From IMG/VR virus record IMGVR_UViG_3300028189_000001, positions 1 through 60,501 of that record: a stretch of DNA of 60,501 nt. One strand, 5' to 3'. Position numbers and translations under genes: made by a program. How positions within the stretch are numbered: position 1 is the stretch's first letter; every line of letters starts with the position of its first letter. Shown one piece after another: positions 1 to 58,926 of the stretch. Source of the stretch: a virus (Duplodnaviria > Caudoviricetes). The notes beneath the pieces were generated by a model. That model did no database searches. It was not told where the DNA came from and saw only the letters and a list, made by a program, of their open reading frames with translations.

Positions 1-127
1 AATACTGGGGTGACTTTAACGATGAATATTTTATACCAATAACAAAAACTGGAGGAATGCCTAACAATTTTTTTAGATAATACACTTAAAAGCCTTGCTA
101 CCATTGGTAGTGAGGCTTAAGGTGGTA
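1..127. repeat. Terminal direct repeat (assembly overlap marking a circular/complete genome), copy 1
   Basis: Identical to 60375-60501; the ORF at 60116-60454 reads through it. Confidence 0.95.
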
Positions 128-135
128 TAACTAAA
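83..135 (+). promoter_or_regulatory. Intergenic hairpin element, class A (AGCCTTGC..CC-ATT-GG..GTGAGGCT...GGTGGTATAACTAA)
   Basis: Paralogous copy at ~59191-59240 with compensatory stem changes. Confidence 0.65.
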
Positions 136-167
136 TAACAAAATTATAAACCTAAATAAATAACATT

Positions 168-263
168 ATGAAAAACCCAACTTGGGCAATCGCACTAGCT
201 TTACTGCTAGTGTTTGCATATACGTTAGTAATTATAGATATTATAACATTTTTAATAAACTAA
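168..263 (+). CDS. Small single-TM peptide (MKNPTWAIALALLLVFAYTLVIIDIITFLIN)
   Basis: Translated by hand; A-rich leader, hydrophobic stretch; below the ORF-track cutoff. Confidence 0.5.
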   Translation: MKNPTWAIALALLLVFAYTLVIIDIITFLIN

Positions 264-274
264 AACTATACAAA

Positions 275-850
275 ATGAAAAAAGATGTAAGATTAAAAAA
301 ACAAACCCGTAAAGTGGGGGTTGCTGGTAGTTTTATCAATCAAATGATGGGCAATAATTCAAGTGAACCTGTTGTTGGTGAAGGTGCAACAATATTAATG
401 TATTCCGATAGAGTAGCTTATGAGGTAACTGAAGTTTCCGATGATGGTATGCAATGTGTTATACGTCAAATGGATGCAAAAAATATTGGCTCTGGTTATG
501 GCGATGAGCGTTATACATATGAGTCAAATATTAAAAATCACACAATGACATTAGAGTGGAGCAATAAAAAACAATGTTGGAGTTCTGTTGGATATTCTGT
601 TGAAATCATCAAATCATTAAGAGGTAAGTACGATAAAGAATTCGGTTACGGCTCAACAAAATATTTATTAGCAGACTATGGAATTGAATCATATCAACAT
701 TTATATGAAAATCCAAATGATGAAGATGGAAATTATTACAATCAAATGATGATAATTTCTGGTATAACCAAACGATACAAAAACTTTGATAAAATATCAG
801 TAATATTTGGAATAATGGAAGAATACCGAGACCCAAGTTTTAAAAAATAA
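275..850 (+). CDS. Hypothetical early phage protein
   Basis: ORF 182-850; likely start is ATG 275 after an A-rich leader; ends with GIMEEYRDPSF. Confidence 0.75.
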   Translation: MKKDVRLKKQTRKVGVAGSFINQMMGNNSSEPVVGEGATILMYSDRVAYEVTEVSDDGMQCVIRQMDAKNIGSGYGDERYTYESNIKNHTMTLEWSNKKQCWSSVGYSVEIIKSLRGKYDKEFGYGSTKYLLADYGIESYQHLYENPNDEDGNYYNQMMIISGITKRYKNFDKISVIFGIMEEYRDPSFKK

Positions 851-865
851 TGTATAATTTAATCA

Positions 866-896
866 GGGAGGGCAATTTGCTCTCCCATAACTAAAA
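866..896 (+). promoter_or_regulatory. Intergenic hairpin element, class B (GGGAGGGCA-nnn-TGCYCTCCY-ATAACTAAAA)
   Basis: Copies at 866, 2001 and 60075. Confidence 0.65.
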
Positions 897-911
897 AGGA
901 AGGAGAATAAT

Positions 912-1046
912 ATGACTATCAAAGTACTAACAAAAGAGTCACTATACATTACAATAAATAATACTACTTACTACATAGATGACTCAACCAATGAGCAAAT
1001 AATGGATAAGTGGAATAATGATAAACTAAAAAAGAAAGGAGAATAA
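912..1046 (+). CDS. Small hypothetical protein (44 aa)
   Basis: Translated by hand; preceded by GGAAGGAGAATAAT; fills the intergenic gap. Confidence 0.6.
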   Translation: MTIKVLTKESLYITINNTTYYIDDSTNEQIMDKWNNDKLKKKGE

Positions 1047-1048
1047 TT

Positions 1049-1615
1049 ATGCCGAATTGGGTTTACAACAGAATTGTTTTTTCAGAAGAATTAACAACTG
1101 AACAAAAACAGAAAATAGAGGTAATGAAAATGCAGAAGGGGATGTGTAGATACTACACCCCAATGCCTATTGAACTTGAAGGGGGTAGTCACCCATCACA
1201 GACCAATCAAGATAATTGGTATGACTTTGCTATCAGAGAGTGGGGGACAAAGTGGGGTGATTGTGATTTTGATTTTGATTTTGAGGATGAAATTATATCG
1301 TTCGATACTGCTTGGTCACCCATATCCAACAAAATACTTAATCTACTCGCAAAAGACTTTCCCAACTTTACCTATGAGTTTGAAGAGGAAACAGAGTGGG
1401 GTGGGGAAATAGAGTACGAGAATGGAGAGGTCATTAGGTCTTGGGCTTATGATGAACCGAATTGGGAATACTATGAGGATGGTAATGAATACCAAATCAC
1501 CGAACTACAGAGTGAGCATCCCTTGTATGAGGATGATGGGGTTGGATTTTATTATGCGTATTCACGAGAGTATTTAGGTGAAACTTTAGATGAAGCAATC
1601 AAAAATTATAACTAA
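1049..1615 (+). CDS. YubB/DUF1281-type ferredoxin-like fold protein
   Basis: MPNW..N, WY....EWGTKW and FDTAWSP motifs. Confidence 0.75.
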   Translation: MPNWVYNRIVFSEELTTEQKQKIEVMKMQKGMCRYYTPMPIELEGGSHPSQTNQDNWYDFAIREWGTKWGDCDFDFDFEDEIISFDTAWSPISNKILNLLAKDFPNFTYEFEEETEWGGEIEYENGEVIRSWAYDEPNWEYYEDGNEYQITELQSEHPLYEDDGVGFYYAYSREYLGETLDEAIKNYN

Positions 1616-1635
1616 TAAAAAGGAAGGAGAATAAA

Positions 1636-1974
1636 ATGAAGAAAATAGAACTAAATAAAATAGCTAAGAAGTTACAACACTTAGAGATTATTGAGTTGAG
1701 GGATTCGGGGTTAAAGAATCGCAATGGTGGTTTTGCTATTGTAGAGATGTATGATTATGATGATGAAATCCTATACGTGACAGTACAAACGGGTGTTCAA
1801 ACGGGCAATGATGATTTTTCATCAACAGTGAGAGATAGGAAAATAAACAGAGAAACATTGGAGTGGTATACCATCCCCGACCCCAATGCAGTAGATTGTA
1901 ACAACTGTGATGGGCAGGATTTTCATTTGGATGAAATATGTCCTGATTGTGGAAGAGATAATTTTACTAAATAA
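1636..1974 (+). CDS. Hypothetical protein with C-terminal Zn ribbon
   Basis: CNNC...CPDC. Confidence 0.7.
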   Translation: MKKIELNKIAKKLQHLEIIELRDSGLKNRNGGFAIVEMYDYDDEILYVTVQTGVQTGNDDFSSTVRDRKINRETLEWYTIPDPNAVDCNNCDGQDFHLDEICPDCGRDNFTK

Positions 1975-2000
1975 AGCAGTAATAAAATAACATAAACAAA

Positions 2001-2030
2001 GGGAGGGCATTTTGCCCTCCTATAACTAAA
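2001..2030 (+). promoter_or_regulatory. Intergenic hairpin element, class B
   Basis: GGGAGGGCA-TTT-TGCCCTCCT-ATAACTAAA. Confidence 0.65.
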
Positions 2031-2048
2031 AAGAAAGGAGAATAAAAT

Positions 2049-2423
2049 ATGACTAATTTAACAGACTATATTGATTGGGTTTCTATAGATGTGGATTTCA
2101 ATTTACGAACCGATTTAAAAAGTATTAAAATTCTTTCTAGAATAGAGTCCAGTTTGAAAGATTATATAAACAACAACAGAGATTGGGATAACATAGATGC
2201 GTTTGACTTTTTATATACGCATAATGGAACACAAATTAATCGCACCGAGTTTAACAATAATGTTCCACTCGGATGGATGCTTGACCTTGACCATGAACTA
2301 GTGTATGATTATAGGGGTTACAAGGCACAACACCAAGAGATATTATTCTCATGTTGTGGTGATGAAATTACTGGGGATATACTTGACTATGGTAGATGCC
2401 CAACTTGTAAAGAAAATTTATAA
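2049..2423 (+). CDS. Hypothetical protein with C-terminal Zn finger
   Basis: SCCG...RCPTCKENL. Confidence 0.7.
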   Translation: MTNLTDYIDWVSIDVDFNLRTDLKSIKILSRIESSLKDYINNNRDWDNIDAFDFLYTHNGTQINRTEFNNNVPLGWMLDLDHELVYDYRGYKAQHQEILFSCCGDEITGDILDYGRCPTCKENL

Positions 2424-2434
2424 AACAATTTAAA

Positions 2435-2662
2435 ATGAAAAGTTTACTAGATAGATTAGAAACGAAAGGAAAAGATATGTTGAATGCTCATTCAATTAAG
2501 TACAGACATACTGGCAGACACCTAACTTTGATGTTAACACAACATAAAAGTCTTATGGATATGGAGTTCGGAGATGTTTGGGCTTTATCTTATGTATTTG
2601 AATGTGATATTATAAATGTTTTGGATTATTTTAAAATGGATAGCTATGAAGAAGTATTATAA
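2435..2662 (+). CDS. Hypothetical protein
   Basis: ORF in operon, A-rich leader. Confidence 0.6.
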   Translation: MKSLLDRLETKGKDMLNAHSIKYRHTGRHLTLMLTQHKSLMDMEFGDVWALSYVFECDIINVLDYFKMDSYEEVL

Positions 2663-2771
2663 TAATTTCAAGGAGATAGTTAGGAATGTGATGGATGTAT
2701 TTTACATTATCATTATTCCTATCTTTATAATTTTATTAACGATACATTTGTTATTACTATGGATGAGATAG
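2646..2771 (+). CDS. Small single-TM peptide (41 aa)
   Basis: Translated by hand: MKKYYNNFKEIVRNVMDVFYIIIIPIFIILLTIHLLLLWMR; bridges the flanking ORFs. Confidence 0.4.
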   Translation: MKKYYNNFKEIVRNVMDVFYIIIIPIFIILLTIHLLLLWMR

Positions 2772-3127
2772 ATTTAAAAATTTTAATTATCAAAGGAATG
2801 GAGGAGGCGTTTAGCACAAGAGGTAAAAGAAAGAACTTACTCAAAGCAAAATGTCCTCCAATAGATACATTAGGTTCTGCCGTTTGGCAAGGCTTAATGG
2901 CACACTCAAATAAATTCAAGTTAGGCATGGCTCATGTCATGTATCTAACTGGTGAGAGAAGAGAGGTTTTTGACTACTTAATTAAGTTAGGGTCAAGGGT
3001 TGACCTTTCGGGTATGGATTTAGATGCCAATATATTGGCTGACTTTTTTGACTTCGAGGTTTTGGACATGATAGATTGGGAAACCGAAGATGATTTTATT
3101 AATGATGATGATGAACCTATATTTTAA
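2759..3127 (+). CDS. Hypothetical protein
   Basis: ORF with RGKRKNLLKAKCPP motif and acidic tail. Confidence 0.7.
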   Translation: MDEIDLKILIIKGMEEAFSTRGKRKNLLKAKCPPIDTLGSAVWQGLMAHSNKFKLGMAHVMYLTGERREVFDYLIKLGSRVDLSGMDLDANILADFFDFEVLDMIDWETEDDFINDDDEPIF

Positions 3128-3131
3128 AAAT

Positions 3132-3524
3132 ATGAAACAACTAAAAGTACTACAAATTAAAGAAGGCACTCGATGGTATGATGTTAAGATTGATGACAAA
3201 GCCATAATGAGTACTGGATATTCTGAAGATATAAAAGAAAAATTCAGAAATCAAATAAATAAATATGACCAAGAGTTAAGAGTGGTATCAGTTTACTACC
3301 CATTACTTGAGGCATCAGTCATAACATTGAATAATGATGACTTGACTTATAGGGTAACAACTGACCTAACAAAGTTAGATGCAGAGGATGTTAACAAGTT
3401 AAGCTACCTATTCGAGGTTAGTACTGAAACAAAAGAAAATCAATGGGGAGATAACGGACTGGTACACACCCTATTGCACCGAATAAATTTTACCGATGAT
3501 GAATTTATAACTTTAAATATTTAA
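3132..3524 (+). CDS. Hypothetical protein
   Basis: ORF 3090-3524; likely start is ATG 3132. Confidence 0.65.
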   Translation: MKQLKVLQIKEGTRWYDVKIDDKAIMSTGYSEDIKEKFRNQINKYDQELRVVSVYYPLLEASVITLNNDDLTYRVTTDLTKLDAEDVNKLSYLFEVSTETKENQWGDNGLVHTLLHRINFTDDEFITLNI

Positions 3525-3527
3525 GAC

Positions 3528-3707
3528 ATGAAAAAATCACAGATTATAGATGGAGTGACAATAACTTTTCACGACAATAAACTAAACTTTAATATCCCAT
3601 CTTCATGGGATGGCATTGACTACTCCAGTTGGAAGAGTAGAAATCTTAATGATATAAATATTCTCCACAAAGAGATGAAGGAATTAAGGAGGTCTGAGGA
3701 TGTATAG
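3528..3707 (+). CDS. Small hypothetical protein (59 aa)
   Basis: Translated by hand; fills the gap and overlaps the next start. Confidence 0.55.
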   Translation: MKKSQIIDGVTITFHDNKLNFNIPSSWDGIDYSSWKSRNLNDINILHKEMKELRRSEDV

Positions 3708-4104
3708 TGATAAAGAAATATTCAAACAAGCAGAGTCAGACCCTACTTGTTTGATAATAAAAGATGAAATTACTTATGCCATTATAAATAACGGAACCAG
3801 AATAGAAAGGTTTGATGATGGTACATATGAATATATGAACACCTCTACAAGTGGAGATTATTATGAGCCGTTAAGTTCAGAGTGTAAGATGACAATAGAA
3901 TCTTACGGATGGGCTTTAGGTACACTCAAGGTTAAGCTTGTTAATAATATATACAAACTCAATAGGATTGAGGTTGCGATAAAAGATGAGGTTAATAGTA
4001 GACAAAACCCAAAAATACTTACCTTCCTCAAAAGGAGGAGGGAAGAGGTTATGGAGGTCTATAATACCTCCGTAAAAAAAACAAAGAAACTAAAAAGTTA
4101 TTGA
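3700..4104 (+). CDS. Hypothetical protein
   Basis: ORF in operon. Confidence 0.7.
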   Translation: MYSDKEIFKQAESDPTCLIIKDEITYAIINNGTRIERFDDGTYEYMNTSTSGDYYEPLSSECKMTIESYGWALGTLKVKLVNNIYKLNRIEVAIKDEVNSRQNPKILTFLKRRREEVMEVYNTSVKKTKKLKSY

Positions 4105-4113
4105 TATTTTTTG

Positions 4114-4121
4114 TATCTTTG
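4114..4121 (+). promoter_or_regulatory. Bacteroidota -7 promoter box TATCTTTG
   Basis: Matches TAnnTTTG; intergenic, upstream of the recombination operon; similar context at 9560-9582. Confidence 0.7.
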
Positions 4122-4265
4122 TGGACACTTCCACACCTATTTATGGTGACACTTTACACATACCTAAGATTATATTTTAATTTTAATATATTACATATGC
4201 TATAGACATTTAGCTGATAGCGTCAGCTCAGCTCTAAAAAAAAGGCGTTGGTCAAAAAGAAGAGA

Positions 4266-4299
4266 GGGTGATGAGGATTCGATTCCCTCATCACTCACT
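4266..4299 (+). ncRNA. tRNA-like minihelix (acceptor stem plus T arm mimic)
   Basis: GGGTGAT-GAGGA-TTCGATT-CCCTC-ATCACTC-ACT; no D or anticodon arm. Confidence 0.5.
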
Positions 4300-4334
4300 A
4301 TTAAATTTTAATTCTAATTAAACACAAATTTATT

Positions 4335-4937
4335 ATGAGTAACACTAAAGATTACACAAATGTTTTTAACACATTGAATTCAATTGATGTTAAACCAATG
4401 ATTGAAAAGAAGGGTAAGATGAATTACGTTTCTTGGTCACACGCTTGGCGTTCAGTCAAGACATTATTCCCTAACGCCACACGAAAAGTATACGAGGCAG
4501 AGAATGGCTTGAACTATTTCACAGATGGAAGAACTTGCTTTGTAAAAGTTGGAGTAACTATTAATGATGAGGAGATGATTGATTATCTACCTATCATGGA
4601 CTATCGGATGCAGAGTATTACTGCTGACAAGGTAACTTCAATGGATGTTAATAAGGCTATACAACGTAGTATGACCAAGGCTATAGCTATGCATGGACTT
4701 GGCTTAGAGTTATGGTATGGTGAGGACTTGCCAGTTGAGGAGAAGAAAGACCCTAACAAAAAAGCTAAGCTATCTACCGACTCTCCTAACTATGACAAGG
4801 TATTGGTATTTATAGAGGGCAAGGCTAAGTCAGGAGTATCATTCGCAAAATGTATGACTGACATTGAGAAGAAGTATGAGGTAACACCTCAAACTAAAAA
4901 AACTCTTAGTGCTAAATATAAATCAGCATCAGTCTAA
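4335..4937 (+). CDS. Single-strand annealing protein (DUF1071/Sak3-like, Rad52 fold)
   Basis: YVSWSHAW, LPIMDYR, DVNKAIQRSMTKAIAMHGLGL.L..GED motifs. Confidence 0.85.
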   Translation: MSNTKDYTNVFNTLNSIDVKPMIEKKGKMNYVSWSHAWRSVKTLFPNATRKVYEAENGLNYFTDGRTCFVKVGVTINDEEMIDYLPIMDYRMQSITADKVTSMDVNKAIQRSMTKAIAMHGLGLELWYGEDLPVEEKKDPNKKAKLSTDSPNYDKVLVFIEGKAKSGVSFAKCMTDIEKKYEVTPQTKKTLSAKYKSASV

Positions 4938-5662
4938 TGGATGTTATTACCGAACTAAGAGATGATGCAAAATATTATGGGGAATTTGGCAAACAATATG
5001 TCAGTGCCTCAGATATCGGAACTCTACTAAACAATCCTTCTGAATTCAAGAAGGATAAGACTCCAACTATTCCTATGTTGCAAGGACATATGTTCCATCA
5101 GCTAATATTAGAACCTAGCAAGGATGTTAAATATCATGTCGTTGATGCCAATACAAGGAGTACAAAGCACTACAAAGATTATGTGAATAGTAATCAGGTA
5201 GACCAAGCTTACCTGCAAAAAGAAGTTGATGCAGTTGAATCATGGGTTGATGTCGTAAAGAACAACTTTTTAATTTATGATTTGATTACGCAGGAAGGGA
5301 ACCTATATGAAGTACCTGCCGTTGGTGAGATTATGAGTACTCCATTCAAGGGAAAAGCTGATATTGTTGGTGATAAGATATATGATTTAAAAACCACAAG
5401 TGATATCAATCAGTTCATGTGGTCAGCAAAGAGATATAACTACGATAGTCAGGCTTACATCTATAAACAACTATTCGATAAGGACATGGTATTCATTGTG
5501 GTTGATAAACAAACCAATCAACTGGGTATCTTTGAATGTTCTCAGCAGTTCTATGATAATGGGAGAGACAAAGTAGAACGTGCATTAGAAGTATGGGATA
5601 GGTACTACTCTCCATTAAGTACAGAGGATATTAATTCAAGAATTATTTACCAAACATTATAA
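4937..5662 (+). CDS. PD-(D/E)XK exonuclease (DUF3799/RecE-like)
   Basis: GHMFHQLILEP, KGKADIV, YDLKTT, YDSQAYIY; adjacent to the annealase. Confidence 0.85.
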   Translation: MDVITELRDDAKYYGEFGKQYVSASDIGTLLNNPSEFKKDKTPTIPMLQGHMFHQLILEPSKDVKYHVVDANTRSTKHYKDYVNSNQVDQAYLQKEVDAVESWVDVVKNNFLIYDLITQEGNLYEVPAVGEIMSTPFKGKADIVGDKIYDLKTTSDINQFMWSAKRYNYDSQAYIYKQLFDKDMVFIVVDKQTNQLGIFECSQQFYDNGRDKVERALEVWDRYYSPLSTEDINSRIIYQTL

Positions 5663-5672
5663 ATATATTATT

Positions 5673-5972
5673 ATGAGTGAAAAAAAAGAAGTGCTATTTG
5701 CAGATGGAATTTATTTTAAAAGAAATGAAAACGCACCAGAGTTTGTGGTGGGCAAGGTTAAATTTAAAGTTGATGAAGCTATAAAGACCTTGAAAGAATT
5801 CCAGAGTGATGGATGGTTGTCAGTTGATATCAAGCAATCAAAGAGTGGAAACTACTATGTAGAAGTTGATACTTGGAAGCCTGAAGGTGGGTTTAAGAAA
5901 AAAAAAAATGACACACCTGTGACAGAAAATGACACACCTGTGACAGAAACTACTGAAGAACTACCATTCTAA
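5673..5972 (+). CDS. Putative single-stranded DNA-binding protein
   Basis: Small beta-rich protein with acidic EELPF tail, in the recombination module. Confidence 0.65.
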   Translation: MSEKKEVLFADGIYFKRNENAPEFVVGKVKFKVDEAIKTLKEFQSDGWLSVDIKQSKSGNYYVEVDTWKPEGGFKKKKNDTPVTENDTPVTETTEELPF

Positions 5973-6186
5973 CTATCAGTTATTTACCATTAAAATATGG
6001 GGAGGTAATGACAATCCTCCCCTATTTTTATATATATACAACTAATAACTTTCTAATATTTGTATATTTTTTTTTATTGATTTTGATAAATTATCAGTCA
6101 TTCAGTCATTAAGGACTTATAAATATTGATAATCAAATAGTTAAAAGGTAAATGCATCTGTCATTTATCTGTCATAAATTGTCACT
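5908..6186. repeat. Inverted TGAC/GTCA iteron array 1 (putative replication origin)
   Basis: RTGACA x4 at 10-11 bp spacing (5908-5945), ATGACA at 6008, GTCATTCAGTCATT at 6097-6110, TGTCAY x3 at 6159-6185, IHF-consensus AATCAAATAGTTA at 6131-6143; directly upstream of the primase. Confidence 0.6.
5997..6029 (+). terminator. Rho-independent terminator after the SSB gene
   Basis: GGGGAGG...CCTCCCC followed by a T run. Confidence 0.6.
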
Positions 6187-6204
6187 AATATAAATTAAAC
6201 ACAA

Positions 6205-8631
6205 ATGAAAATAACAATATTTAAAGACATAAGGGAGACAGAACAAAAACACATTGTTGATGTTGGGGTTATGTTAGAAAGGATTAAGAATGGGTCTAAG
6301 AGTAAAGACCTAATTAAATCTATTAGAGTTGAGAAGGATTCAACCAAGAGGCAACAACTAAAAATGAAGTTGCCCTCTATTTTATTCTCAGGAGAGTTTG
6401 TGGGTAGAAAAGATTCTGACATTGTAAATCATAGTGGGTTGATATGTTTGGACTTTGACAAGTACGATAGTCAAAAAGATATGCTATCAGATAAAGAGAA
6501 GTTTACCAAGGATAAGTTCACTTACTCAGTATTTATTTCTCCTTCAGGTAATGGATTGAAAGTGCTTGTTAAGATACCTAAAGATATACCTAATCATAAG
6601 CTATACTTCAATGCCTTACAGAAGTATTATAACAACCCACATTTTGATACCACATCTAAGAATATTGCAAGGGTATGTTATGAGAGTTATGACCCATTGA
6701 TTTTTACTAATGGTATTAGTAGTGTGTGGGAAAAGTATGAAGAGCCTGAGCACAGAGAGATAGAGTTGGATTCTAAAAGAAAGACCATTAAAATAACCGA
6801 CAAACCTAAAATAATAGATATACTTCAGAAGTGGTGGACAAAGAAGTATCCTATGATTGAGGGCGAGAGAAATAATAATGCGTATGTATTTGCCCAAGCT
6901 TGTAATGAGTTTGGAGTATACCCAGTGCAAAGCAAGAACGTGCTTTCAGAATATTGTGGCAATGGATTTTCTATTGAAGAGATGGAGAAGGTTGTTGATT
7001 CTGCTTACAGACAAACTGAAAAGAACAACACAAAATTTTATGAAGATGAGGATAGAATAAATAGAATTAAACAGCAAGTTAAATCAGGAGCACCAAGAAC
7101 AGAGATACACAGAAGTGCTGATGATGATATTGAATCAGACATAATAGATTCTATTATAGATGAAACGATTAATGAGGCTGATGAGTATTTGTTTTGGAGC
7201 ATAAGCGATAGAGGCGTTGTTCGGCTACAACCTAATACCTTTAAACATTTTTTGGAGGACAATGGGTATTATAAATATGCGATAGAAGGTTCAAATAATT
7301 ATACATTTGTTAAGGTAATCAACAATCTTATAGAGGCTACAGACGTTAATGATATAAAAGATTTTACCCTTAACTATCTTATTAAACTATCTAACATTGC
7401 AATCTATAATCACTTTGCTGATAGCACGAGGTACTTTACAGATAACTATCTAAGTCTAATAGATACAATTGATATATTCTTTATTGAGGATACTAAAGAC
7501 GTTAGCTATTTATACTATAAAGATTGTGCTATTAAAGTAACAAGTGGTGATGTTGAAATAATAGATTATATAGACTTAGGTGGCTATGTATGGAAAGACC
7601 ACATCATTGATAGAAACTTTAAAATAGTTAAGGTTGATAAACATTCTGACTATCCTAAATTTATTGGTAACATATCCAATAACAAAAGTGATAGACGCAG
7701 GTCAATGGAAAGTACAATAGGTTATCTTATGCATGGATATAAAACTCCATCGTATGCACCTGCTGTTATTCTTAATGATGAGATTATTTCTGACAACCCT
7801 GAAGGCGGTACTGGCAAGGGTATTTTTATGAACGCTTTATCTCATATGAAGAAGGTGGTTACTATTGATGGTAAGAGTTTTAGCTTTGAGAAAAACTTTG
7901 CTTATCAGTTAGTTAATTCAGATACTCAGATATTATTATTTGATGATATCAGAAAACACTTTCCTTTTGAAAGATTGTTTAGCGTGGTAACTGAAGGTAT
8001 TACTATAGAGAAAAAGAATAAGGACTCGGTTAAGGTTCCTTTTGAAAAATCTCCAAAGGTAGCTATCACTACTAACTATGCTATCAGAGGAGCAGGTAAT
8101 TCTTTTGTCAGAAGAAAGTGGGAACTAGAATTACATCAGTATTATAATGCAAATTATACACCACTAGATGAATTTGGTAAGATGCTTTTTTCAGATTGGG
8201 ATGATGACGAGTGGTCACAATTTGATAACTATATGATTTCTTGTTTGCAAGTGTACATGTCTCAGGGATTAGTATCTTCAAGCTTTGTTAATCTTAAGAT
8301 AAGACATTTGTCTGCCGAGACATCACATGATTTTGTGGAGTGGCTTGGGCTTGTAGATGAGGATAAGAATGACTTTAATAAATACTCAGTGGTTGGTTGT
8401 AAAATTAGCCTTAGTGAGGCTATGGGAGATTTCATATCTGATTATCCTGACTACCAAGCTAAGAGTAAGTTTGCTTTGTCATCTAAAAACTTCAAAAGTT
8501 GGTTCCAATCTTATGCTATATATAAGACTGGAGAAAAAGCTGAGAACGGAAGAGACGCTACAAGTAGATGGTTTAGGCTCAAAACGGAGCAGGAAATATC
8601 TGCTTCAGTACAAACTAAAATTAATATATAA
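6205..8631 (+). CDS. Primase(-polymerase)/SF3 helicase fusion (BT4734/VirE-N primase, PriCT, helicase)
   Basis: HSGLICLDFD, FISPSGNGLKV, GERNN; Walker A GGTGKG; Walker B LLFDD; ITTN. Confidence 0.88.
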   Translation: MKITIFKDIRETEQKHIVDVGVMLERIKNGSKSKDLIKSIRVEKDSTKRQQLKMKLPSILFSGEFVGRKDSDIVNHSGLICLDFDKYDSQKDMLSDKEKFTKDKFTYSVFISPSGNGLKVLVKIPKDIPNHKLYFNALQKYYNNPHFDTTSKNIARVCYESYDPLIFTNGISSVWEKYEEPEHREIELDSKRKTIKITDKPKIIDILQKWWTKKYPMIEGERNNNAYVFAQACNEFGVYPVQSKNVLSEYCGNGFSIEEMEKVVDSAYRQTEKNNTKFYEDEDRINRIKQQVKSGAPRTEIHRSADDDIESDIIDSIIDETINEADEYLFWSISDRGVVRLQPNTFKHFLEDNGYYKYAIEGSNNYTFVKVINNLIEATDVNDIKDFTLNYLIKLSNIAIYNHFADSTRYFTDNYLSLIDTIDIFFIEDTKDVSYLYYKDCAIKVTSGDVEIIDYIDLGGYVWKDHIIDRNFKIVKVDKHSDYPKFIGNISNNKSDRRRSMESTIGYLMHGYKTPSYAPAVILNDEIISDNPEGGTGKGIFMNALSHMKKVVTIDGKSFSFEKNFAYQLVNSDTQILLFDDIRKHFPFERLFSVVTEGITIEKKNKDSVKVPFEKSPKVAITTNYAIRGAGNSFVRRKWELELHQYYNANYTPLDEFGKMLFSDWDDDEWSQFDNYMISCLQVYMSQGLVSSSFVNLKIRHLSAETSHDFVEWLGLVDEDKNDFNKYSVVGCKISLSEAMGDFISDYPDYQAKSKFALSSKNFKSWFQSYAIYKTGEKAENGRDATSRWFRLKTEQEISASVQTKINI

Positions 8632-15071: not shown

Positions 15072-18000
15072 TTACTTCTTTTTCTTGTTATAATCTTTAT
15101 ATAATTGCCTTAAGGTAACTCTTCTTATATCTTTATATAAAGGTAGTATACCAATTAAACCTAAAGCATCTACTGTTCCTCTTACTTTTAATTCCTTAAT
15201 ATTTTTCTGTCGAGTATCCCATCGGTTACTTGATGTGGCTCTTTGAGCCAAGGTTCCTGCTCTGATTCCTCCTTTAATGTAAGGAGACATCGCACCTGAA
15301 AACCCTTGAATTAAAGTTTTAGAAATGTTACCCTCTGTTAAATCTTGAAACGATACAGGAGAGAACAGTATAGAATGCTCAAATGAATCATAGTCTTGGT
15401 CAGGATAAGACCTTAAAAAACCTCCATGTTCTTTATTCATGGCTTCAACTCCCCAAGCTATAGGCATACGTCCTATTGCTCCTAGATTACGTTGCAATAA
15501 TAGTGTGGCTATTGAACCCGTCAACTGTCGCTTCATCAAAGCCGTGTAGTCTATTTCCTCTTCTTCAAAGTCATCAAATAGCATACTGCCTAGCATGACA
15601 TCAAACATTTCCCTAAGTAAAGAATACATTACCATATAACTAGACATCCTTAGTGTGGCTGCTGCTATTAAGGCTAAGCCTTTACGTCTACTTATTTTCC
15701 CTCCATACACTAACCCTAGGATACCATCTCTAAATGTGGTATATTCATATATCATAAAGGTCTGCATAAATCCGTTTATCTTTTTCCAAAGAACGGTAGC
15801 AGTATTGTCATCAGGGTTTATCTTCCCACTAAGTACACCATTAAATATATTAACAGAGGTGGCTGCCATTGTTACTTCTTTATCAGCCTTAAGTCTAGCT
15901 TTTTTAATAGCTGCTTTATGTTCTTTCAAGTAAGCCTTGTCATTTTCTCTGATAGCATCAAAGTTAATGTCTTGACCACTCTCTTTCTTAAACTCAATAG
16001 CCATTGTTCCAAACCAAAGAGGTCTAGATACCATCATATCAGGTGTTGATATCAGACCTGTGTGAAGGTAGTCTATACCTTTTAGAGGATAGTTTAAATA
16101 TTTTCCTACAACAGAGGTTACCCTACCTGCAACTCCTTTTGCTTTAGCTTTTTTTACAGACTGCTTTGTATCAAACATAGTTGACTCCATGAATTTACCT
16201 AAAGCTTTTCTACCAAATGCTTTGTTAGTGGCTTCAGACAGTGAATTACTCATAATATCCCTACTGTCTGCTCTCATTGAAAGGTTAGCGTATTTACTTA
16301 TACCTACACCATATCCTTTAGGCTGTGCTATCAGTACATACCCTAAGTTAGAAGAAAATTCAGCACCTGCTCTAGGTATGGACGCAAGTAAAGCTTTATA
16401 TCCTATACCTTCCATTCTAGCCAATACACTATTTTTTTTATGAGCCATATTAGAATCGAAAGCTATTTTTAATGCCTCATTAAAAGCATCTCTAACAGCT
16501 ATTAGCGATTCTAAATGTTCTTCGTTTATTTCTGGTTCATTGGATGCTTTGTATATAGCTTTATTTATGGTTCTCTGAATTGTTTTCACAGGATTTGTCA
16601 TATGAAAATCAAGTAGCGTTTCTCTTGCTCCATTTAATGTAGCGGCTAATGGGTCAAAGTTTATATTTTTAACACCCTCTGTTCTTTCTTGTAATGTGCC
16701 TGCCTTTATTGATGCTGATTTAAACCTGTTAAATATTTTTGATACAGCTTGGTTAGCTTGCTTTTCATTAGCATACACAGTATCGTGACGTATATAATTG
16801 TTATACATTGTAGGTCTGCTACCTCCTATGGTTGCTCCTGCATGTAAAGCTTTCTCATATACCACTTCATTAGTTTTGTCAACAACCTTAATCATTTCTT
16901 TTTGAAGAGGGTCAAGCGAATTAAATAATTTCTCTGCTGATATTTCACCATTTTCATCTTGGATACTTTTATCACTAAGAATTTTCTCAAATATTACTTG
17001 GTCTTTCTTATCATAGTATGATACCTCTCTCTTCTTTATACCATCTATCTGAGCTTCAAGAGCTTGTTTACCTGAGAATGTTGTACTCTCTTTACTAGGA
17101 TTTGAATCCCTCTCACGCTGAAGTAGATAGGTCATTACCCTCCACTTGAACTCAGCTATTTTATTAGGATTTCCTATGAATTTATTGTCAATTTTATTGT
17201 CAATATACAATATCTTTTCAGCCAACTTATCTACCTCTGCTCCAAACTTTGACATACTTACACCAGCCTTGCCAAATATCTCATTATATATAGCATGGTC
17301 TTCATGGTTACCAAACACAGCATCTATAGAGTGAAGAGGATTATTAGTTATAGCACTAAGCTCTTTGGTTTTATTCCCAAAAATATACGACCTAATTTTA
17401 GCTGTAGCTTTTTCCACCATAAGCTTTATGCCTCCTTCTGTCTTGTCATATAATATCTCTGACGCTGGTAAAGATTCAGCCTCAATGGCTACGTTGTTTC
17501 CGTATGCAGAAAAGTACCCATTTTTTATTTGGTCTAGTAAATCAGGTATATTTTCTAGCATACTTAAAGGCATTTTCTGTAGCTCCACCTTCTTTAATAG
17601 CTCTAATAAGTAATCTGCCCGCTCATTGTCATACTCATTCTCTGTTGTTTCTTCTACCTTAAAGTCTTTAAGCAAGGTTTTTATTTCTTTCTCAAGCTCC
17701 TCTTTTCTCTCTTGTATTTCTTCCTCAGTTTTAGGTTCACTCTTTAGTGAAGGAAGAATAAGGCTTTTATATTGCCTTATAATGTTAGCGGTTTCTTCAT
17801 CTAACTCACCTTCTTTAACCATTCTAGCAATGGTCTTAGCAAAGTCCACCTTGATACCGTCTTCACCCAAAGCTAGGTTAGGCGATGACATTATAAGACT
17901 GTTGTACAGTGGGATTTTTTCATATACATTACTAACTTCTTCTAATATTTTTTCTGCTTTAGCTACAATAATATCCTTCTGTTCAGGAGTAAGTACAGCT

Positions 18001-21000
18001 TTAGATGAACCGAATTGATTTACTAAAGATACATAATCTTCTAGAACAGAAGCGGGTATAAGCTTAGCTCTAATACTAAACACAGAGTCAAGTAAATCAA
18101 ATGTTGCATTTATAGCACCCACTTTCTTTCTTATATTCTGCTTAGCTTTCTTGCGTATCTTATCACTGCGTACCATTCTCTCAGCTAATTCAGCCTTCTC
18201 AAATATTTTTTGAGTAAACTCTGTGAAATTCTCTACTTGCTTAGAACTAAACACATTAAGTTTCATAGCTTTTTCAGACAGAACAAGTGCTTGATACTGT
18301 GTGAGCTTGCCTATTGTTCTTAATTCTTTTATAGTTTTAATTATTTCTTTAGCTATTCTAGTTCTTTCTTTCAAGGTGTTTCTAGCCTGAGATGCTGATA
18401 ACTTTATCTGCTCTATCAATGAAGTATACTCTTCAGTTGCTACCTGACTATCAACTGTACCCTTATCAACAGCAGTTTGTAATTGACTCTTGATACCGTT
18501 AACAAATCTAGTTATGGTAGCCTTAAGGTTATTTACTTGTTTATCTGTAAGATTTTTTCTTTTATTCCACTTTTCTAGTAGCTCCTGTGCTCTTGATTTT
18601 TGCTCCTTGTTACCATTAAGTAAAGCCTCGTTTAGTTTCTGGGCATACTTTTCAGTAACCTTCTTAGTAGGTGCAACCTTCTTAGTAGGTGCAACCTTCT
18701 TAGGTGTAACCTTCTTAGTAGGTGTAACCTTCTTAGTAGGTGTAACCTTCTTAGTAGGTGCAACCTTCTTAGGTGCAACCTTCTTAGGTGCAAGATTTTT
18801 TTCTCTTAGCTTGCTTAAATCTTTTTTGTTTTTTTCATTATCTACATTAAAACTTGCTGATGCTCTCCAATAATTTTCATTTATATTTTTCTTCTCTTCA
18901 TTGTACTTATCAGTAGAATATATATTCACCCAACCTTCTAACTCCTTAATCTCATTATTATGGTTTTTCTTTAAGGCTTTTAATTTACCATCAACTTCAT
19001 CTATCTTATCTTGAATCTTTTTCTTCTTGTCAAGATAAACCTTATCTGTGCTTTCTACCATAATAGGTTCTGCTTTAGACCCTTTAGTAGATGTATCTTT
19101 GATAGCTTTTTTTAGTAATTGCATATCCCCTCGCCACAATGCAATCTTTTTATTACTAGCTTTAATAGAGTTATTTTTTACATTGGTTGTCCTAGCTAAA
19201 CTTTTTTTATGTTTATCTAAACTCTCCTTAGTTTTAGCATTCTCTATCTTCTTCTTAATATTTGTAGAGTTATCCTTAAATGTATTTAGTACTTTTGTTT
19301 TTTTCTGTTCCTCTGCTTCTATATTATTTTTTAACTCAGCGATAGCTAATTCGGTTGCCTCTTCTTTATCAGCTCTCTGAAACTTAGTATCACTCTCCTC
19401 GTCAGGTCTCCAACTAAAATTATTTTTCTCTTCGTTAGCCCACTCTGCTATCCTTTCAGACCGTAGTACCAGTGGGGGAGCGGCTTCTCTAAGTCCTCGT
19501 CCGCCATCTTGTCTCCATGCAGATAGCTCATCGCTAAGGATTGTGTTAGCTCTTCTCCCAAGGAGTTTGCGAATATCTCCGCTGCTTTTAATGATTCTAA
19601 GTCCACTATCTGTCGCCCATTTTGGGAATCGTTTTCTTGTTTCTTCCTCATTTCTAAAGTATTGTATTGATGAAATTATTAATGACCTTTCTTCTTGTGT
19701 TATGTTTCCTTCTTCTATCTCTTTTACCAAAGCCTCAGATAAATCAAAGAAGTATTTTTTCTCATCATTTGTTCTTTGAGCATTGTTAACTCCAAAGGCT
19801 CTCTGAGCTTCCCAAGTAATTGATTGTAACTCTCTCGCACTTAACCCAACCTCTGCTGCTACTTCTTGGTATGCTTCTTTTATAACATCATACATAGCAG
19901 ATTTACCTTGGTCAAATAACTTGATGCCACCTGCATCATTTACAGAAGCAGGCAGGTTTAAAGCTACGGAAGCTGCGTGAGTATCTGCTGTTATGTAATC
20001 GTTCTCATGGTCAGGGTGTAGAATGTTATTTATAAAGTTTCTAACCTTATTCCCGTAACCTATTTGCACTGAGACATTCTCTCTACTGCCATCTAAGTAT
20101 AGACTAATAGCCTTAGCTATCTCGCTGTTTGAATTCCAAGTAATGGGTGTGCTGTTAAGCACAATATTACCTTTCTCATCCTTAAGTATCTTGCCATTAG
20201 GGTCTGTCTGAGCTACCCCAGAACTATTGTTCGCTTGGTCTTTTATTCTAACAACAGTAGCTACCTGCTGTAGTCTGTTTATGTAATCATTATCAGCCTC
20301 ACCTTTACCTTGAGGTGCAAGCAACTCGTCTATTGTCATTCCAATAAATTCTTTTGCTGCATCAATAGATTTAAGGAAAGTGCTTTTGCTGTCATTACGA
20401 CCAACATAGTTCTTTACCTTTTGCCACTCTTCCTGTGTAAGAGGCTTATCATTTTGATTAGTAAGAACATCCAAGACTCTCTCGGCTCCTGATATATTGT
20501 TGAACCAATCATTTTGTGGGGATAGTACTGCAAGTATACCAGCTACTTGAGGTGTACTGAGTTTGCTACCATCAGGTTTTACATATGTATCCTGAAGGTT
20601 TCTAGCAATTCTATGAGCACCATTATACCACTTCTTTGAATTCTCTATAAATTCAGAGTCTAAGGTATTATATATACTTCTTATATTAGCCTTAGCCATT
20701 TCTTTAAAACCATCCATCACTTTTTTAGCTAAAGGAACCATAAACTTTTCAGTCCAATCAGACTTTTTATCCATTCCACTTTCCTTAAAAAGCTCCTTAT
20801 GATTATCTCTAAGGCGTGATAATTCCTTGGCTTCTCCCATCATTGAAAAGGGTAGAGAAAACTTGGATGAAAATATAACTTTTTTAATTGCTCTATCAAT
20901 GTTATTTTTATCCTTAGCCTCAGCTTCTTTAGCTGTGATGCCGTGCTTTTCTTCAGAATCCTTATAAGTTACACCTTTGTTCCATGTATATATTCCTTTT

Positions 21001-24000
21001 GCTATACTTGTAGCCATACCTAGAATATGAGAATTAACTTGACTCTTTGCATTATTCAATTGGTCTTGAATACTACCATTACCAAGTTCTGTGTGCTTTG
21101 TATCTCCTCCTATTTTTTTCTTGTCGGCAACAGAAGGTATAGCATCTTCTTTCTTTCCTTTGAAGTCATACTTTTCTTCACCAGTTACGTTTAGGTTAGT
21201 AACATCTTCTATCTGTAATTTTGTCTCATCTTCAGAAATCTCAACTGCGTCCTTCTGCTGACGGGCTTTAGGGAGTTGGGGAGTTGCTGAAGTCTCAGTA
21301 ACCAATGGAGATTGCTTTATATCTCTACCTTTAGCAATGGCATTTAACAAAGTTTTTGTTTCACCTGCTGTGGATACACTAACACCTTTTACTCTTAACT
21401 TGTTTAAGATTCTATTAAGCCACTTCATTATCAGCTCTTTAACGCTCAGTGACATACTATCATAATTCTGAGCAAGTATGCCTGCTAATTCTGCCAGCAT
21501 TTCCTCTTTCTGGCTAGACTTTTTATAATTCTTAGCAAATTTTTCTAGTTTTATTTTAATATCTCCATCAACCTTACCTATAATAGAGTCAAGCATTCTG
21601 CTTGTAAGTTCAATTATTTCCTTATTACTAAGGTCACCACTATCTAATACAGCATGAAGCACTTCATGTGCTACAGTTCTAGGGTTAGCCTTCTCACTAT
21701 TAATATATATAACGCCTTTACTATAAGCACCTGCACCTGTTTGTCTTTGAGCCTTAGTTCCACCCATCCTTTCATCGTTACTAAAATCCTCAGTGCTGTC
21801 GTGTATAACAAATTTTACATTAGGAAAGCTTTTCTTAAGAGCTTTTTTATATTTTTTTACCTGCTTAGTAACCTCTTTTATACCAATGCTTTTTTGGCTA
21901 GTATCCTCCTCTACAATGTTAGGACTCTCCTGAGCCTCTTCTGCTTTAGCTTCTTCTGCTACCACCTCAATGAGCTGAGTCCTTGGTTGACCTGACCAAT
22001 CATACCCTACCTCGAAAGTTTTCGCACCATCTTTTGTTTTTACAACAGAAACATTGTCAGTCTTTTTATTGAGCTTATTCTTGAATGTAAAGTTATCATC
22101 ACCTTTAATTCTTAGTTGTGCTGTTCCATCTTGAAATACTAAACCCTCTGAATGAGCAACTGACTCTTGGTTAAATGTTTTAGCAAACTCAACAGCATGC
22201 TCCAATGATAGGTTAGGAACAAAATAAGAGTTCTCTGCTGTTCCATACTTACCCGTAAGCCTCCGAGGTGTATATCCTTTTTGCTTTAACCAAACCCAAG
22301 CTTTTTTATTAAGCGATGCATTCTCCTCTTCTGTTAATGGCTGAGCCTCAGGATTCTCACCAGTCAATATACCAAACTCTCCATCTAACTCTTCCTTTAA
22401 CTGCTCAATATCTTCTTCTTTTAATTCAGCAACAGAATCCTCTACATATTTTGGTTTTGTTCTAGCTGACTTTCTCTCAGCTTTTTGTTTTTCTGTAGGC
22501 ATCTTAACTCTTACACCTGCTATAAGAACATCACCGTCTTTGTCTTCTTTTGTGTCAGTCTCAAATGTAGCTTGCTCAATCTCAGCACCTTCATTGATTT
22601 CGTTCCGAAGGATTTCGTATACCTCAGTATAAACTTCTTGGTCTGTCTTACCTTCAGTATCAAGACTTTCCTTAACCTCAGCACCTTTGTCTCCAAAGAC
22701 TTCATCAACAGCGTTTGTGTAGTCTATAGAGTTCATTATCTCTGCCTTAGCATCAGATAAAACATTTATAGACTCCTGAAACTCAGCAGCTTCTTGTTTG
22801 CTTAAAGTTGCTCTATGCTTTTTTAGTTTTATATCAATTTGCTTAGGACTATCAGTTCTCTCAACACCTGCCTGTTTCAGTAATTTTGACATGAGGTTGT
22901 CGTATGTTAAAAGGTCACCAACTTTTTTTCCTCCTAGCAAAACAACATCCGCCTCTGCGTTCTTAACAAGACCGCTTATTTTCTCTACCAAGTTATTAAT
23001 CTTATTGTGTACCGCTGACCTTTGAGTGTCGCTCAATGGAGCGTTAAGCATACTCTTGTACCCATCTATTATATCGAACGCTTTTTTGAGTTGGTTCTTG
23101 TACTTTTTTATACCTACATCCTCCATAATCTTAGAGTAAGCTATGGAAGGAGCTGAGGAACCTGCTGAGGAAATAATTGATGTCACAGCAACATCATCTA
23201 ACTGGGAGAAGTCTACATCGTCACCCAAAATAAGACCATTAGAAAGTTGATATAATGACTCTATTGAAGTCTCCTCTACAATCTCTGAAGTTGTACGTTT
23301 ACCTAATTCTAATACAGGTTTCCATCCTGATTTGTTTCCGTTAAGAACACCATAAACAAACTTGTTAGGCTTGACTTTAGATAAGTCCTTAAGTATTTTC
23401 ATTGAGTTAGGAACTGTACCAACAAATCTTGTTATACTTCCTTCCACAAAACCAGCAGCAACGGCAGCTCTTATGAGGTCTTCCTCAGATATGTCTGATA
23501 TTTTTCTCTGTCTTTCAAGTTGATACTTCTGTTGGTTGTACTCTGATTCAGGTAATATATTCTTATTTTCCTCCAACTCTAACAATGCATCATCTATATC
23601 ACCTAATGCTCCTTGTCTTTCTTTCAGGTCTGCATATGTAGCACCATAAGACGATACTCCAAATATTCCTGCTGTAGTTGTAGCCACAGGTAACCCTAAG
23701 GTTCCTCCTGATGCTCCAATACCTATAGCCATTAATGTGTAAGGTAGCTGTGTTGTAAACTCTCTAGTGGCAAACTCCCAAGCGTTACCGTCATCAGCAA
23801 AAGCCTCCTTATATGTTTCCTTAATTGGAGTTGTAGCATAATACTCTTCTACCCTTTCCTTCTTATGCTCTAATATCTCGTTTATGTTTGCGTCTCTTTG
23901 TTTAGGGTCTCCAAAGCCTAATCCTTTATTAAGGGAATTCAAGGCAATTGATACATCTTCAGCTAACCCTACTGTTGTGAACATAAAGTCCTTACCTAAA

Positions 24001-50319: not shown

Positions 50320-50321
50320 TA

Positions 50322-56360: not shown

Positions 56361-56624
56361 TTAACTATTCACAACGACTATATCTTGCTCTCTTATAACT
56401 GAGAGTTTTTCTTTTCCGTATAATATGGTATGACCTGCTGCCCTATCGTACACAACTTCCATTCCACCTTTAATAACATCTACAACATCTGTTCCTGCTG
56501 AAACAACCTCACCCTTGCGGTATCGGATGTCGTTAATATCTTCGGAAGAAAGTAACAGACCGCTTTCAGTCTGTACCTCTTCCTCTATGGGTCTGATTAC
56601 TAAATACTTACCTATAGCCTCCAT
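56361..56624 (-). CDS. groES: Co-chaperonin GroES
   Basis: LVIRP, TESGLLL mobile loop, GEVVSAG, IREQDI. Confidence 0.9.
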   Translation of the reverse strand: MEAIGKYLVIRPIEEEVQTESGLLLSSEDINDIRYRKGEVVSAGTDVVDVIKGGMEVVYDRAAGHTILYGKEKLSVIREQDIVVVNS

Positions 56625-58196: not shown

Positions 58197-58219
58197 ATTG
58201 TAGTTAATTTTATATTATG

Positions 58220-58227
58220 CAAATATA
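58220..58227 (-). promoter_or_regulatory. -7 box TATATTTG for the groEL/late arm
   Basis: Matches TAnnTTTG; just upstream of groEL. Confidence 0.6.
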
Positions 58228-58267
58228 ATAAATATATTAATACTATTTTTAGTGGGTTATAAACATT

Positions 58268-58576: not shown

Positions 58577-58890
58577 ATACATAGAGGTGTTGGGTTATAT
58601 AATAAATTTTAAGTCACGCCCCCCAAAAGAAAAGTTGATTTTTATTTCCTCCCCCCCTCCACATTTCAGATTCCTTCCCCCATTTTTTTGCCGTTTTTCC
58701 TCGCCCGTATAGGATACGCACACGCATGTTTCCTTTCCAAGCGAGAGGGAATCTTCTGCCGTTTTGCGTGAAACATCCTTGTAACACGCTGAGGGTGAGG
58801 GCGTAACCCCTCCATACTTATTCTGCATACATATTTAATCCATTATGATTCTCCGATAACATTCTGATACTCCGACATTTGTAAAATAAA

Positions 58891-58922: not shown

Positions 58923-58926
58923 CAGT

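Follow-up and report, generated by a model that had tools for sequence, protein, structure and literature searches.

What would a strong Shine-Dalgarno (SD) sequence do in front of phage genes if the ribosomes of the host are of a kind that masks the anti-SD? This question is raised by the IMG/VR record IMGVR_UViG_3300028189_000001, a podophage genome rated complete, 60,501 bases long and bearing a terminal repeat of 127 bases; the whole stretch is referred to here as the window. Four consecutive plus-strand open reading frames (ORFs) of 44, 188, 112 and 124 amino acids (aa), with ATGs at 912, 1049, 1636 and 2049, are each preceded by a short leader containing an SD-like purine block. Ribosomes of Bacteroidia are reported to bury the tail of the 16S rRNA under the proteins bS21, bS18 and bS6, and Flavobacteriales genomes are reported to have typically one gene, rpsU, with an SD beyond chance (PMC9976891). 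A preliminary description of this DNA had suggested that the four genes are tuned to bS21-depleted ribosomes and sense the state of the host ribosomes, or else that the motif is a cassette joint. We put at about even the chance that the leaders form a portable module for initiation whose SD is genuine, resembles that of rpsU and can be used by bS21-free ribosomes, and that this module is also a cassette joint.

The four leaders, with their pairing to the 16S tail, are the following.
889 to 911, plus strand: leader copy 1, AACTAAAAAG-GAAGGAG-AATAAT, with AGGAAGGAG 6 nt before ATG 912; -12.9 kcal/mol; 9 contiguous pairs, one of them G-U.
1025 to 1048, plus strand: leader copy 2, with AGAAAGGAG 7 nt before ATG 1049; -13.4 kcal/mol; 9 Watson-Crick pairs; lies within the last codons of ORF 912-1046.
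1609 to 1635, plus strand: leader copy 3, ATAACTAATAAAAAGGAAGGAGAATAAA, with AGGAAGGAG 6 nt before ATG 1636; -12.9 kcal/mol; the upstream stop codon lies inside ATAACTAA.
2024 to 2048, plus strand: leader copy 4, with AGAAAGGAG 8 nt before ATG 2049; -13.4 kcal/mol.

A search for the 22-mer AACTAAAAAGRAAGGAGAATAA with up to three mismatches found four matches in the window, at 889, 1025, 1613 and 2024, and none in 100 dinucleotide-preserving shuffles; the AACTAA-type leaders stand before the four ATGs exactly as previously described. The block takes the form AGGAAGGAG in copies 1 and 3 (897-905 and 1621-1629) and AGAAAGGAG in copies 2 and 4 (1033-1041 and 2032-2040). Between it and the ATG stand AATAA and one to three further bases, and the final G of GGAG is separated from the ATG by 6, 7, 6 and 8 nt in copies 1 to 4. 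The module is composed of a stop-rich ATAACTAA, an A run, the AGRAAGGAG block, an AATAA(N1-3) spacer and the ATG, about 22-27 nt in all. An A is found at position -3 in all four leaders and at -6 in three, and all four are predicted to be unpaired in both the minimum-energy and the centroid fold. Genome-wide, the heptamer RAAGGAG is not enriched (22 found, 16.8 +/- 3.8 expected; 13 of 100 shuffles had 22 or more), and the signal of the leaders is thus positional.

The pairing of all leaders was computed with ViennaRNA duplexfold, using positions -20 to -3 of the 65 called ORFs against the tail CACCUCCUUUCU, and positions -60 to -43 as a mock window. The tail given in the preliminary description proved to be correct: an oligonucleotide printed in PMC13000453 gives the Flavobacterium johnsoniae 16S end as ...GGAACACCUCCUUUCU, and the 16S 3' end is GGAACACCTCCTTTCT in five of five Flavobacteriaceae genomes, with a tail ending in ...ACACCUCCUUUCU. 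In all four leaders, AGRAAGGAG forms nine consecutive pairs with the last nine 16S bases (CUCCUUUCU-3'), starting from the terminal U; AGAAAGGAG pairs throughout and AGGAAGGAG includes one G-U. The helix ends at -7 to -9 from the ATG. The claimed complementarity to the 16S 3' end thus amounts to 9 bp at SD spacing, and complementarity, spacing and predicted accessibility all agree with an SD region, the host family being an inferred one.

The rest of the genome behaves differently. While the four led genes score -12.9 or -13.4 kcal/mol, the mean over the 65 ORFs is -1.46, compared with -3.24 in the mock window. Since leaders pair less than mock windows, SD-like sequence is avoided, as in the hosts. 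A score of -8 or better was obtained for 8 of the 65 ORFs (12%), and of -12 or better for 6 of 65, against 0 of 65 mock windows; it holds, then, that the other genes of the phage mostly lack an SD, as 57 of the 65 ORFs have no SD-like pairing. In SD-using loci scored in the same way, 35-70% of the genes reach -8 or better. The other strong ORFs, at 56361 (-13.7), 3700 (-12.3) and 11962 (-10.1), have different sequences that lie within the 3' end of the upstream gene. The site of GroES (56361), GGGGAGG inside the groEL end, is absent in five related contigs (-6.3 to +0.6); it is treated as incidental groEL coding sequence. At 3683-3699, AAGGAGG stands 7 nt before ATG 3700, inside the end of ORF 3528-3707, and is of a type unlike the four leaders.

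A search with TerL among GenBank phages returned 87 records: 68 from Flavobacterium, 15 from Cellulophaga, 2 from Tenacibaculum, 1 from Maribacter and 1 uncultured (MW202828.1, 67.5% identity). All 86 host-named relatives are thus phages of Flavobacteriaceae. The Flavobacterium relatives are the "elemo" podophages of Flavobacterium sp. BAL314, and the gene order of the window (GroEL/GroES, TerL, portal, a giant DUF3293 protein) is that of Flavobacterium phage elemoF. The minus-strand arm encodes the terminase, portal and virion proteins, two tail-fibre-like genes, GroEL/GroES and a virion-type protein of 3331 aa; the plus-strand arm begins with small early genes, followed by a Sak-type annealase, an exonuclease, a primase/helicase and a helicase. 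The early region is present in marine or seawater metagenome runs (20 entries from 11 studies, 3 of them possibly the source of the record itself). Upstream of several genes, intergenic TAnnTTTG motifs, which correspond to the Bacteroidota -7 promoter element, match in the correct orientation. From the TerL kin, these motifs and the SD avoidance, the host is very probably a marine member of the Flavobacteriaceae. The same evidence, together with elemoF, in which no gene of 81 reaches -12 kcal/mol, agrees with the earlier placement of the host in a lineage that masks its anti-SD, and contradicts the opposing case of a host that uses the SD. Among GenBank phages, neither megablast with bases 1-8000 nor tblastn with the 1049 protein gave a match.

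The leaders were compared with those of rpsU. In published work, SD-like sequence is reported to be rarer in the initiation regions of Flavobacteriales than in mock regions, and mutation or depletion of bS21 to raise only reporters with a strong SD (PMC9976891). The occupancy of bS21 in wild-type ribosomes is given as about 0.8, and on the rpsU SD mutants G-11U, G-12A and G-15A wild-type ribosomes are reported to fail, while bS21-truncated ribosomes initiate well (PMC13000453). A 13-bp helix is described on F. johnsoniae rpsU mRNA in particles from which bS21 is absent, the helix of SD and anti-SD and bS21 being described as mutually exclusive on the ribosome (PMC13000457). Autoregulation of rpsU through bS21-lacking ribosomes is reported (PMC9976891, PMC13000453, PMC13000457, PMC7797042), as is a gain in prfB frameshifting when bS21 is lost (PMC10798248). 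SD-less initiation is reported to depend on A at -3 and -6 plus low structure (PMC6847099).

The gene rpsU was present in all 61 sampled genomes, which represent the family of a Flavobacteriaceae metagenome-assembled genome (MAG). The 30 rpsU leaders that were extracted have 10 (2 leaders), 11 (20) or 12 (8) contiguous pairs, energies of -16.5 to -20.8 kcal/mol and the consensus AAAGA(A/G)AGGAGGT(G/T). Their helix ends at -6 to -10, mostly at -9, and at -8 to -10 in 29 of the 30. All 30 leaders, along with PMC9976891 and PMC13000453, bear out the statement that the flavobacterial rpsU is an SD-led gene with the same purine block. By sequence comparison, the phage block is the 5' part of the rpsU extended SD: it pairs with the same 16S tail up to the terminal U, its A/G type of variant occurs in rpsU too, and the AAAGAAAGGAG of the phage is present in 8 of the 30 rpsU leaders. 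Both signals stand out in an otherwise SD-avoiding genome, and the helix ends at similar positions. The two differ in that the phage has 9 pairs, one to three fewer than the 10-12 of rpsU (13 in the F. johnsoniae structure), and GGAG-A where rpsU has GGAGG-U, with a register shifted by 2-5 nt. Moreover, the phage leaders precede early genes and not bS21, are mobile and present in many copies, and have no evident regulatory loop. A search of the phage genome for a bS21 gene (PF01165) gave no match, while the same search matched 6 of 14 control genomes.

The genes that follow the leaders are listed below.
912 to 1046, plus strand: early ORF of 44 aa, family F1; the orthologue in locus L254 has the same kind of leader.
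1049 to 1615, plus strand: early ORF of 188 aa, family F2, with a DUF1281_C / Api92-like ferredoxin-like domain (PF18406, E 1.8e-06, above the cut-off; phrog_12644).
1636 to 1974, plus strand: early ORF of 112 aa, family F3, with a C-terminal CxxC...CxxC.
2049 to 2423, plus strand: early ORF of 124 aa, family F4, with a C-terminal Cys cluster.

Searches of the four led proteins against Pfam and PHROGs found only the DUF1281_C domain of the 1049 protein, and the Atlas look-alikes of the 1636 and 2049 proteins all score below 0.9 and are leads at best. A profile of two 1049-type proteins recovered 80 metagenome loci, three of which are close (L252, L253 and L254). Their 1049-family genes are 86-89% identical in protein and 89-91% in DNA, and all have the leader. 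Over the window and these three loci, AGRAAGGA occurs 22 times on both strands. Fifteen copies stand 6-9 nt before the ATG of an ORF of 44-189 aa (4 in the window, 3 in L252, 5 in L253 and 3 in L254), and one further copy precedes a 7-codon frame. The 15 copies precede eight unrelated protein families: the leader is found on the Api92-like gene in four of four sequences, on the 1636 family in four of four, on the 44-aa gene in two of two, and on the other five families once each. Nine pairs are kept in 12 of the 15 copies and eight in three, namely the copy at L253 position 2820 (GAAAGGAT, -10.1 kcal/mol) and two identical copies in L252 (GGAAGGAATT, -9.8). Among the 1636-family orthologues, the leader is intact in L253 and L254 and decayed in L252; the window and L254 have GGAAGGAG there and L253 has GAAAGGAG, a change from A-U to G-U by which pairing is kept.

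The signal is confined to this small lineage. A score of -12 or better was found in 7 of 720 ORFs (4 of 720 mock windows) of 26 SD-avoiding loci identified through the Sak gene, in 0 of 386 ORFs of 33 SD-avoiding loci with an Api92-like gene, and in 0 of 51 ORFs of MW202828.1, as in elemoF; across the roughly 1,200 genes of these more distant, SD-avoiding relatives it is thus at chance levels. Api92-like genes of greater divergence are found on SD-using contigs as well (44 loci).

The leaders are real mosaic junctions. Upstream of the Api92-like gene is the 44-aa gene in the window and L254, a MEKDNK-family gene in L252 and a 95-aa gene in L253. L252 at position 2353 and L253 at position 4495 have an identical upstream stretch of 40 nt and different downstream genes. 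In the marine DNA runs X6 and X7, contig matches to the window begin or end at 890, 1025, 1029, 1608, 1628, 2024, 2041 and 2045. Several of these contigs go on with sequence unlike the window, and in one contig 1772 is joined to 2041 with 92 other letters between. With 15 copies, eight families, changed neighbours and breakpoints at the leaders, the cassette joint that had been offered as an alternative is supported, and it is compatible with the SD reading. Conserved boundary or linker sequences are found at mosaic junctions in lambdoid and T4-like phages. As in such linkers, a short repeat lies here at gene boundaries, the flanking genes assort independently and the breakpoints lie at the repeat; unlike them, the linker here is also a 16S-complementary initiation region and mostly moves with the downstream gene.

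Two of the leaders lie just downstream of a stable hairpin, and the same hairpin recurs elsewhere in the window.
866 to 886, plus strand: hairpin with a 9-bp stem and a 3-nt loop, just upstream of leader copy 1; -18.7 kcal/mol, z -2.8; repeat family D3.
2001 to 2021, plus strand: hairpin with a 9-bp stem and a 3-nt loop, just upstream of leader copy 4; -18.6 kcal/mol, z -3.2.
60075 to 60115, plus strand: D3 hairpin and ATAACTAAAA leader, without the SD block, before ATG 60116.

Since the last element has no SD block, the hairpin/ATAACTAA part is separable from the SD part. Junctions are also formed by hairpin/ATAACTAA elements that lack the purine block (60075-60115; 91-142 and 59196-59247), with loose ends at 91 and a joint of 127 to 880. 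A pattern search for the hairpin plus ATAACTAA gave three chance matches, all without a hairpin. A terminator-like match at 2002-2020 lies on the minus strand, and on the plus strand the hairpins have no T-run. A second hairpin family, with a 12-bp stem and an ATT loop, is found at 91-117 and 59196-59222, with ATAACTAA 9 nt later. Its two copies differ on both sides of two stem pairs, and variant contigs break there.

Several properties point to a translational role of the leaders: they are complementary to the 16S terminus, are placed at SD spacing, are unstructured, and occur in 15 copies in an SD-avoiding group. Given the published burial of the tail by bS21, any SD role would run through bS21-lacking ribosomes. 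We therefore favour a reading in which the module would be a portable intercistronic element for translation initiation in one lineage of marine Flavobacteriaceae-type podophages. The purine block would act as a real SD, only on 30S subunits with a free tail, i.e., those that lack bS21. With only 9 bp and the last pair of the core missing, the helix should be unable to displace bS21 and should work on bS21-lacking subunits. In other words, the helix would be too short, and would lack the rpsU G needed, to evict bS21, and the module would depend on ribosomes that already lack it. On replete ribosomes, the A at -3 and -6 and the absence of structure would allow initiation as on an SD-less message. 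The four early proteins would thereby gain extra access to the pool of bS21-free ribosomes, of which rpsU is the sole host client known, and the same module would provide the homology for the exchange of early-gene cassettes among related phages. Pairing in vivo, dependence on bS21 and benefit to the phage are what we infer from the published mechanism.

Several observations weigh against this reading. The helix of 9 bp and -12.9 to -13.4 kcal/mol (ViennaRNA) lies at or just under the published rpsU class, reported as 9-13 consecutive pairs and below -13 kcal/mol with another program (PMC9976891, PMC13000453), and falls short of the 30 rpsU leaders of this study by 3-8 kcal/mol. Full pairing of the GGAGG/CCUCC core is absent, as all four leaders read GGAGA; the missing G corresponds to rpsU G-11, a base whose mutation is reported to stop wild-type ribosomes from initiating in vitro (PMC13000453). 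The decayed copies (two in L252 and one in L253) have lost the last pair while their genes are still open, and one X6 strain variant is without base 1629; selection on the full block is thus not absolute. Distant relatives run the homologous gene without an SD: the 1049 homologue of L003, a 62-kb viral contig (39% identity), has a plain A-rich leader, and the nearest outgroups (L255-L258, L260 and L261, 35-39% identity) have no SD. The flanks, ACTAAAAA..AATAA, are near-identical beyond what an SD needs, which fits recombinational copying. Finally, the block and spacer, AAAAGRAAGGAGAATAA, has at least 110 exact matches in public viral contigs, and ATAACTAAWAARRAAGGAG has 54. These contigs were rejected as kin of the phage, as tblastn of 19 window proteins against 165 loci, including the motif matches, found only L003 to be related, plus a 26% GroEL match in L098. 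The matches are ordinary ribosome-binding sites of other phages, and the form of the block is thus not peculiar to Bacteroidia. Such sites, in phages of low-GC SD-using bacteria, have the identical block and spacer at the same spacing; there, the SD is found on 35-70% of genes, whereas here four near-identical copies lie in an SD-avoiding genome and group.

Overall, the earlier interpretation is partly supported, and two further points bear on it. A recent import from an SD-using phylum, which would count against the SD reading, is not supported for the genes (the GC of the block is 34.7% and that of the genome 35.7%; the contigs with the closest homologues of the 1049 gene avoid the SD), while the leader itself may be an import. 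The idea of a sensor is weakened: with A at -3 in four of four leaders and at -6 in three of four, the leaders can probably be read by replete ribosomes too, and some copies have decayed to eight pairs. The stronger version, in which a phage without bS21 would copy the rpsU start signal onto a movable leader to enter the bS21-free ribosomes, is in our judgement distinctly unlikely.

Ahead of the early genes, a single candidate promoter was found.
58886 to 58922, plus strand: candidate Bacteroidota host-type promoter, TTG-N(17-21)-TAGATTTG, with TAGATTTG at 58915; a pattern match only.

This is the sole TAnnTTTG with an upstream TTG ahead of the plus-strand early block, and no TAnnTTTG is present on the plus strand from 59256 round the circular end to 2523. 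Given this absence, it is probable that a single early transcript of the host RNA polymerase includes the four genes as internal cistrons. A scan for sigma-70-type promoters was at chance (28 found, 24.5 expected). Parts of 394-4836, among them 1644-1983 and 2024-2580, are matched at 99-100% by contigs from two metatranscriptomes (X18 and X19); DNA carry-over is possible, and these contigs give neither RNA ends nor levels and are no evidence of transcription, just as the stretches without a match carry no meaning. Between the candidate promoter and the first early gene (59256), about 320 nt (58930-59255) are without an ORF of at least 40 aa and are G+C-richer than their surroundings; a small RNA or a structured leader could lie there. 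Rfam gave nothing on 58200-59300 with E up to 1, nor on the whole window at gathering scores. In the divergent groEL/early-gene intergenic region, tandem direct repeats at 58270-58300 (tgacgcatcaa, twice) and 58550-58575 (aactgtcattg, twice) could be operator or origin repeats. Between two early genes, at 59797-59830, there is a hairpin like the T-arm of a tRNA, GGAGGG-TTCGAAT-CCCTCC; ARAGORN found no tRNA in the window.

Could the leaders be recombination linkers only, kept as homology for shuffling, with an SD look that is a relic ignored by SD-blind ribosomes? The relic may be, for example, a ribosome-binding site brought from a phage of an SD-using host. We consider this unlikely, though well within reason. 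The leader is constant while the upstream neighbours of the orthologues differ among the window, L252, L253 and L254, L252 and L253 share their 40-nt stretch, and the X6 and X7 contigs start and stop at 890, 1025/1029, 1608/1628 and 2024/2041/2045. The identity of the two decayed L252 copies suggests copying between leaders, and viral contigs with no relation to this phage often carry the block with its spacer. Yet any sequence could serve as a joint, and this one keeps the 9-nt complement of 16S in 12 copies and 8 nt of it in three. Many joints of the region (ATAACTTAAAATAAT..., with or without hairpins) carry no purine block, and a neutral relic should erode in this phage and in Flavobacteriales, in both of which SD-like sequence is under-represented (reported for the latter in PMC9976891). 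It is scarcely credible that the host is not SD-blind after all and that the leaders are merely the best ribosome-binding sites of a phage of an SD-using lineage. The host is placed indirectly, through relatives and sequence features, which is also a point against our preferred reading; against an SD-using host are the 57 of 65 ORFs without SD-like pairing, leaders that pair less than mock windows, host-named TerL relatives that are all on Flavobacteriaceae, and the 12% of genes at -8 or better where SD-using loci have 35-70%.

Proteins or RNA polymerase, rather than the ribosome, could also be what recognizes the leader. In T4, RegB cuts GGAG in early leaders and RegA binds leaders; a site for such a translational repressor, or for an endoribonuclease that shuts off early messages, would account for conservation that reaches the A-rich flanks and for the presence of the leaders on early genes of one operon. 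We regard this as improbable. No candidate factor was found: PF10715 (REGB_T4) has no match in the genome, although it matched no control genome either, and by Pfam and PHROGs none of the early ORFs encodes an RNA-binding protein; nor would this reading account for the exact register with the 16S terminus. Very improbable, in our view, is a transcription signal, in which ATAACTAAAAAG..., with or without the upstream hairpin, would be a phage promoter or terminator-promoter that includes the purine block. The 3-nt-loop hairpins lie directly upstream of two copies, and an RNA-library contig begins at 2024. Two of the four copies, however, have no hairpin, the hairpin and ATAACTAA occur without the block at 60075-60115, and there is no T-run on the plus strand; the ends of RNAs cannot be read from contigs, and contigs of DNA are broken there too. 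The genome yielded no phage RNA polymerase: the only domains of the 3331-aa protein are DUF3293 and DUF7178, and it has no relative in the PDB. A virion RNA polymerase of the N4-like or crAss-like type with hairpin promoters was rejected on these findings for the 3331-aa protein and because the two hairpin families are differently spaced from ATAACTAA.

Other features of the window lie on the minus strand. The gene of the 3331-aa virion-type protein (15072-25067) contains an 18-nt tandem repeat at 18655-18805, and the protein has no recognisable polymerase domain. At 48238-54614, neighbouring tail-protein genes of 693 and 1430 aa share several segments of 70-90% identity about 2.1 kb apart, which look like a duplicated or exchangeable receptor-binding module. 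The phage GroEL/GroES pair at 56361-58196 is common to the elemo phages and MW202828.1. GroEL proteins 57-59% identical are found in two contigs of about the length of this phage, L337 (62.6 kb), from the MAG of a Flavobacteriaceae member, and L339 (61.6 kb), from a MAG assigned to Pseudomonadales. The taxonomies of the two bins conflict, and both are probably phage contigs binned with bacteria.

In the published view, SD-dependent translation in Flavobacteriales is limited to rpsU and is performed by bS21-lacking ribosomes (PMC9976891). Our literature search turned up no account of Flavobacteria phages that use the SD, and Cellulophaga phages are reported to lack the SD feature (bioRxiv 10.1101/2021.04.21.440840). 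Myophages that encode bS21 are reported to be assigned to Bacteroidetes hosts (Chen et al. 2022, PMC9723584). This phage differs from them, as far as they are described there, in being a 60-kb podophage without a bS21 gene and not a T4-like or large myophage, and here the SD-led genes are small early genes and not virion genes. If the leaders are inert, they are a clear recombination linker in an abundant marine phage, and SD-like sequence can persist in an SD-blind host. If instead they act as a portable initiation module, they would be a second natural client of the bS21-free pool, with at least eight early gene families, and a ready-made probe for that pool, for which bS21-truncated and anti-SD-ablated F. 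johnsoniae strains, gfp reporters, and dipeptide and toeprint assays are already available. If the stronger takeover version is true, the leaders would be the first natural clients, other than rpsU, of a pool that comprises about 1 in 5 ribosomes in F. johnsoniae. Competition with rpsU mRNA could then lower bS21 and shift the cell to SD-reading ribosomes, a translational takeover or timing device that would be built from a 9-nt RNA element only.

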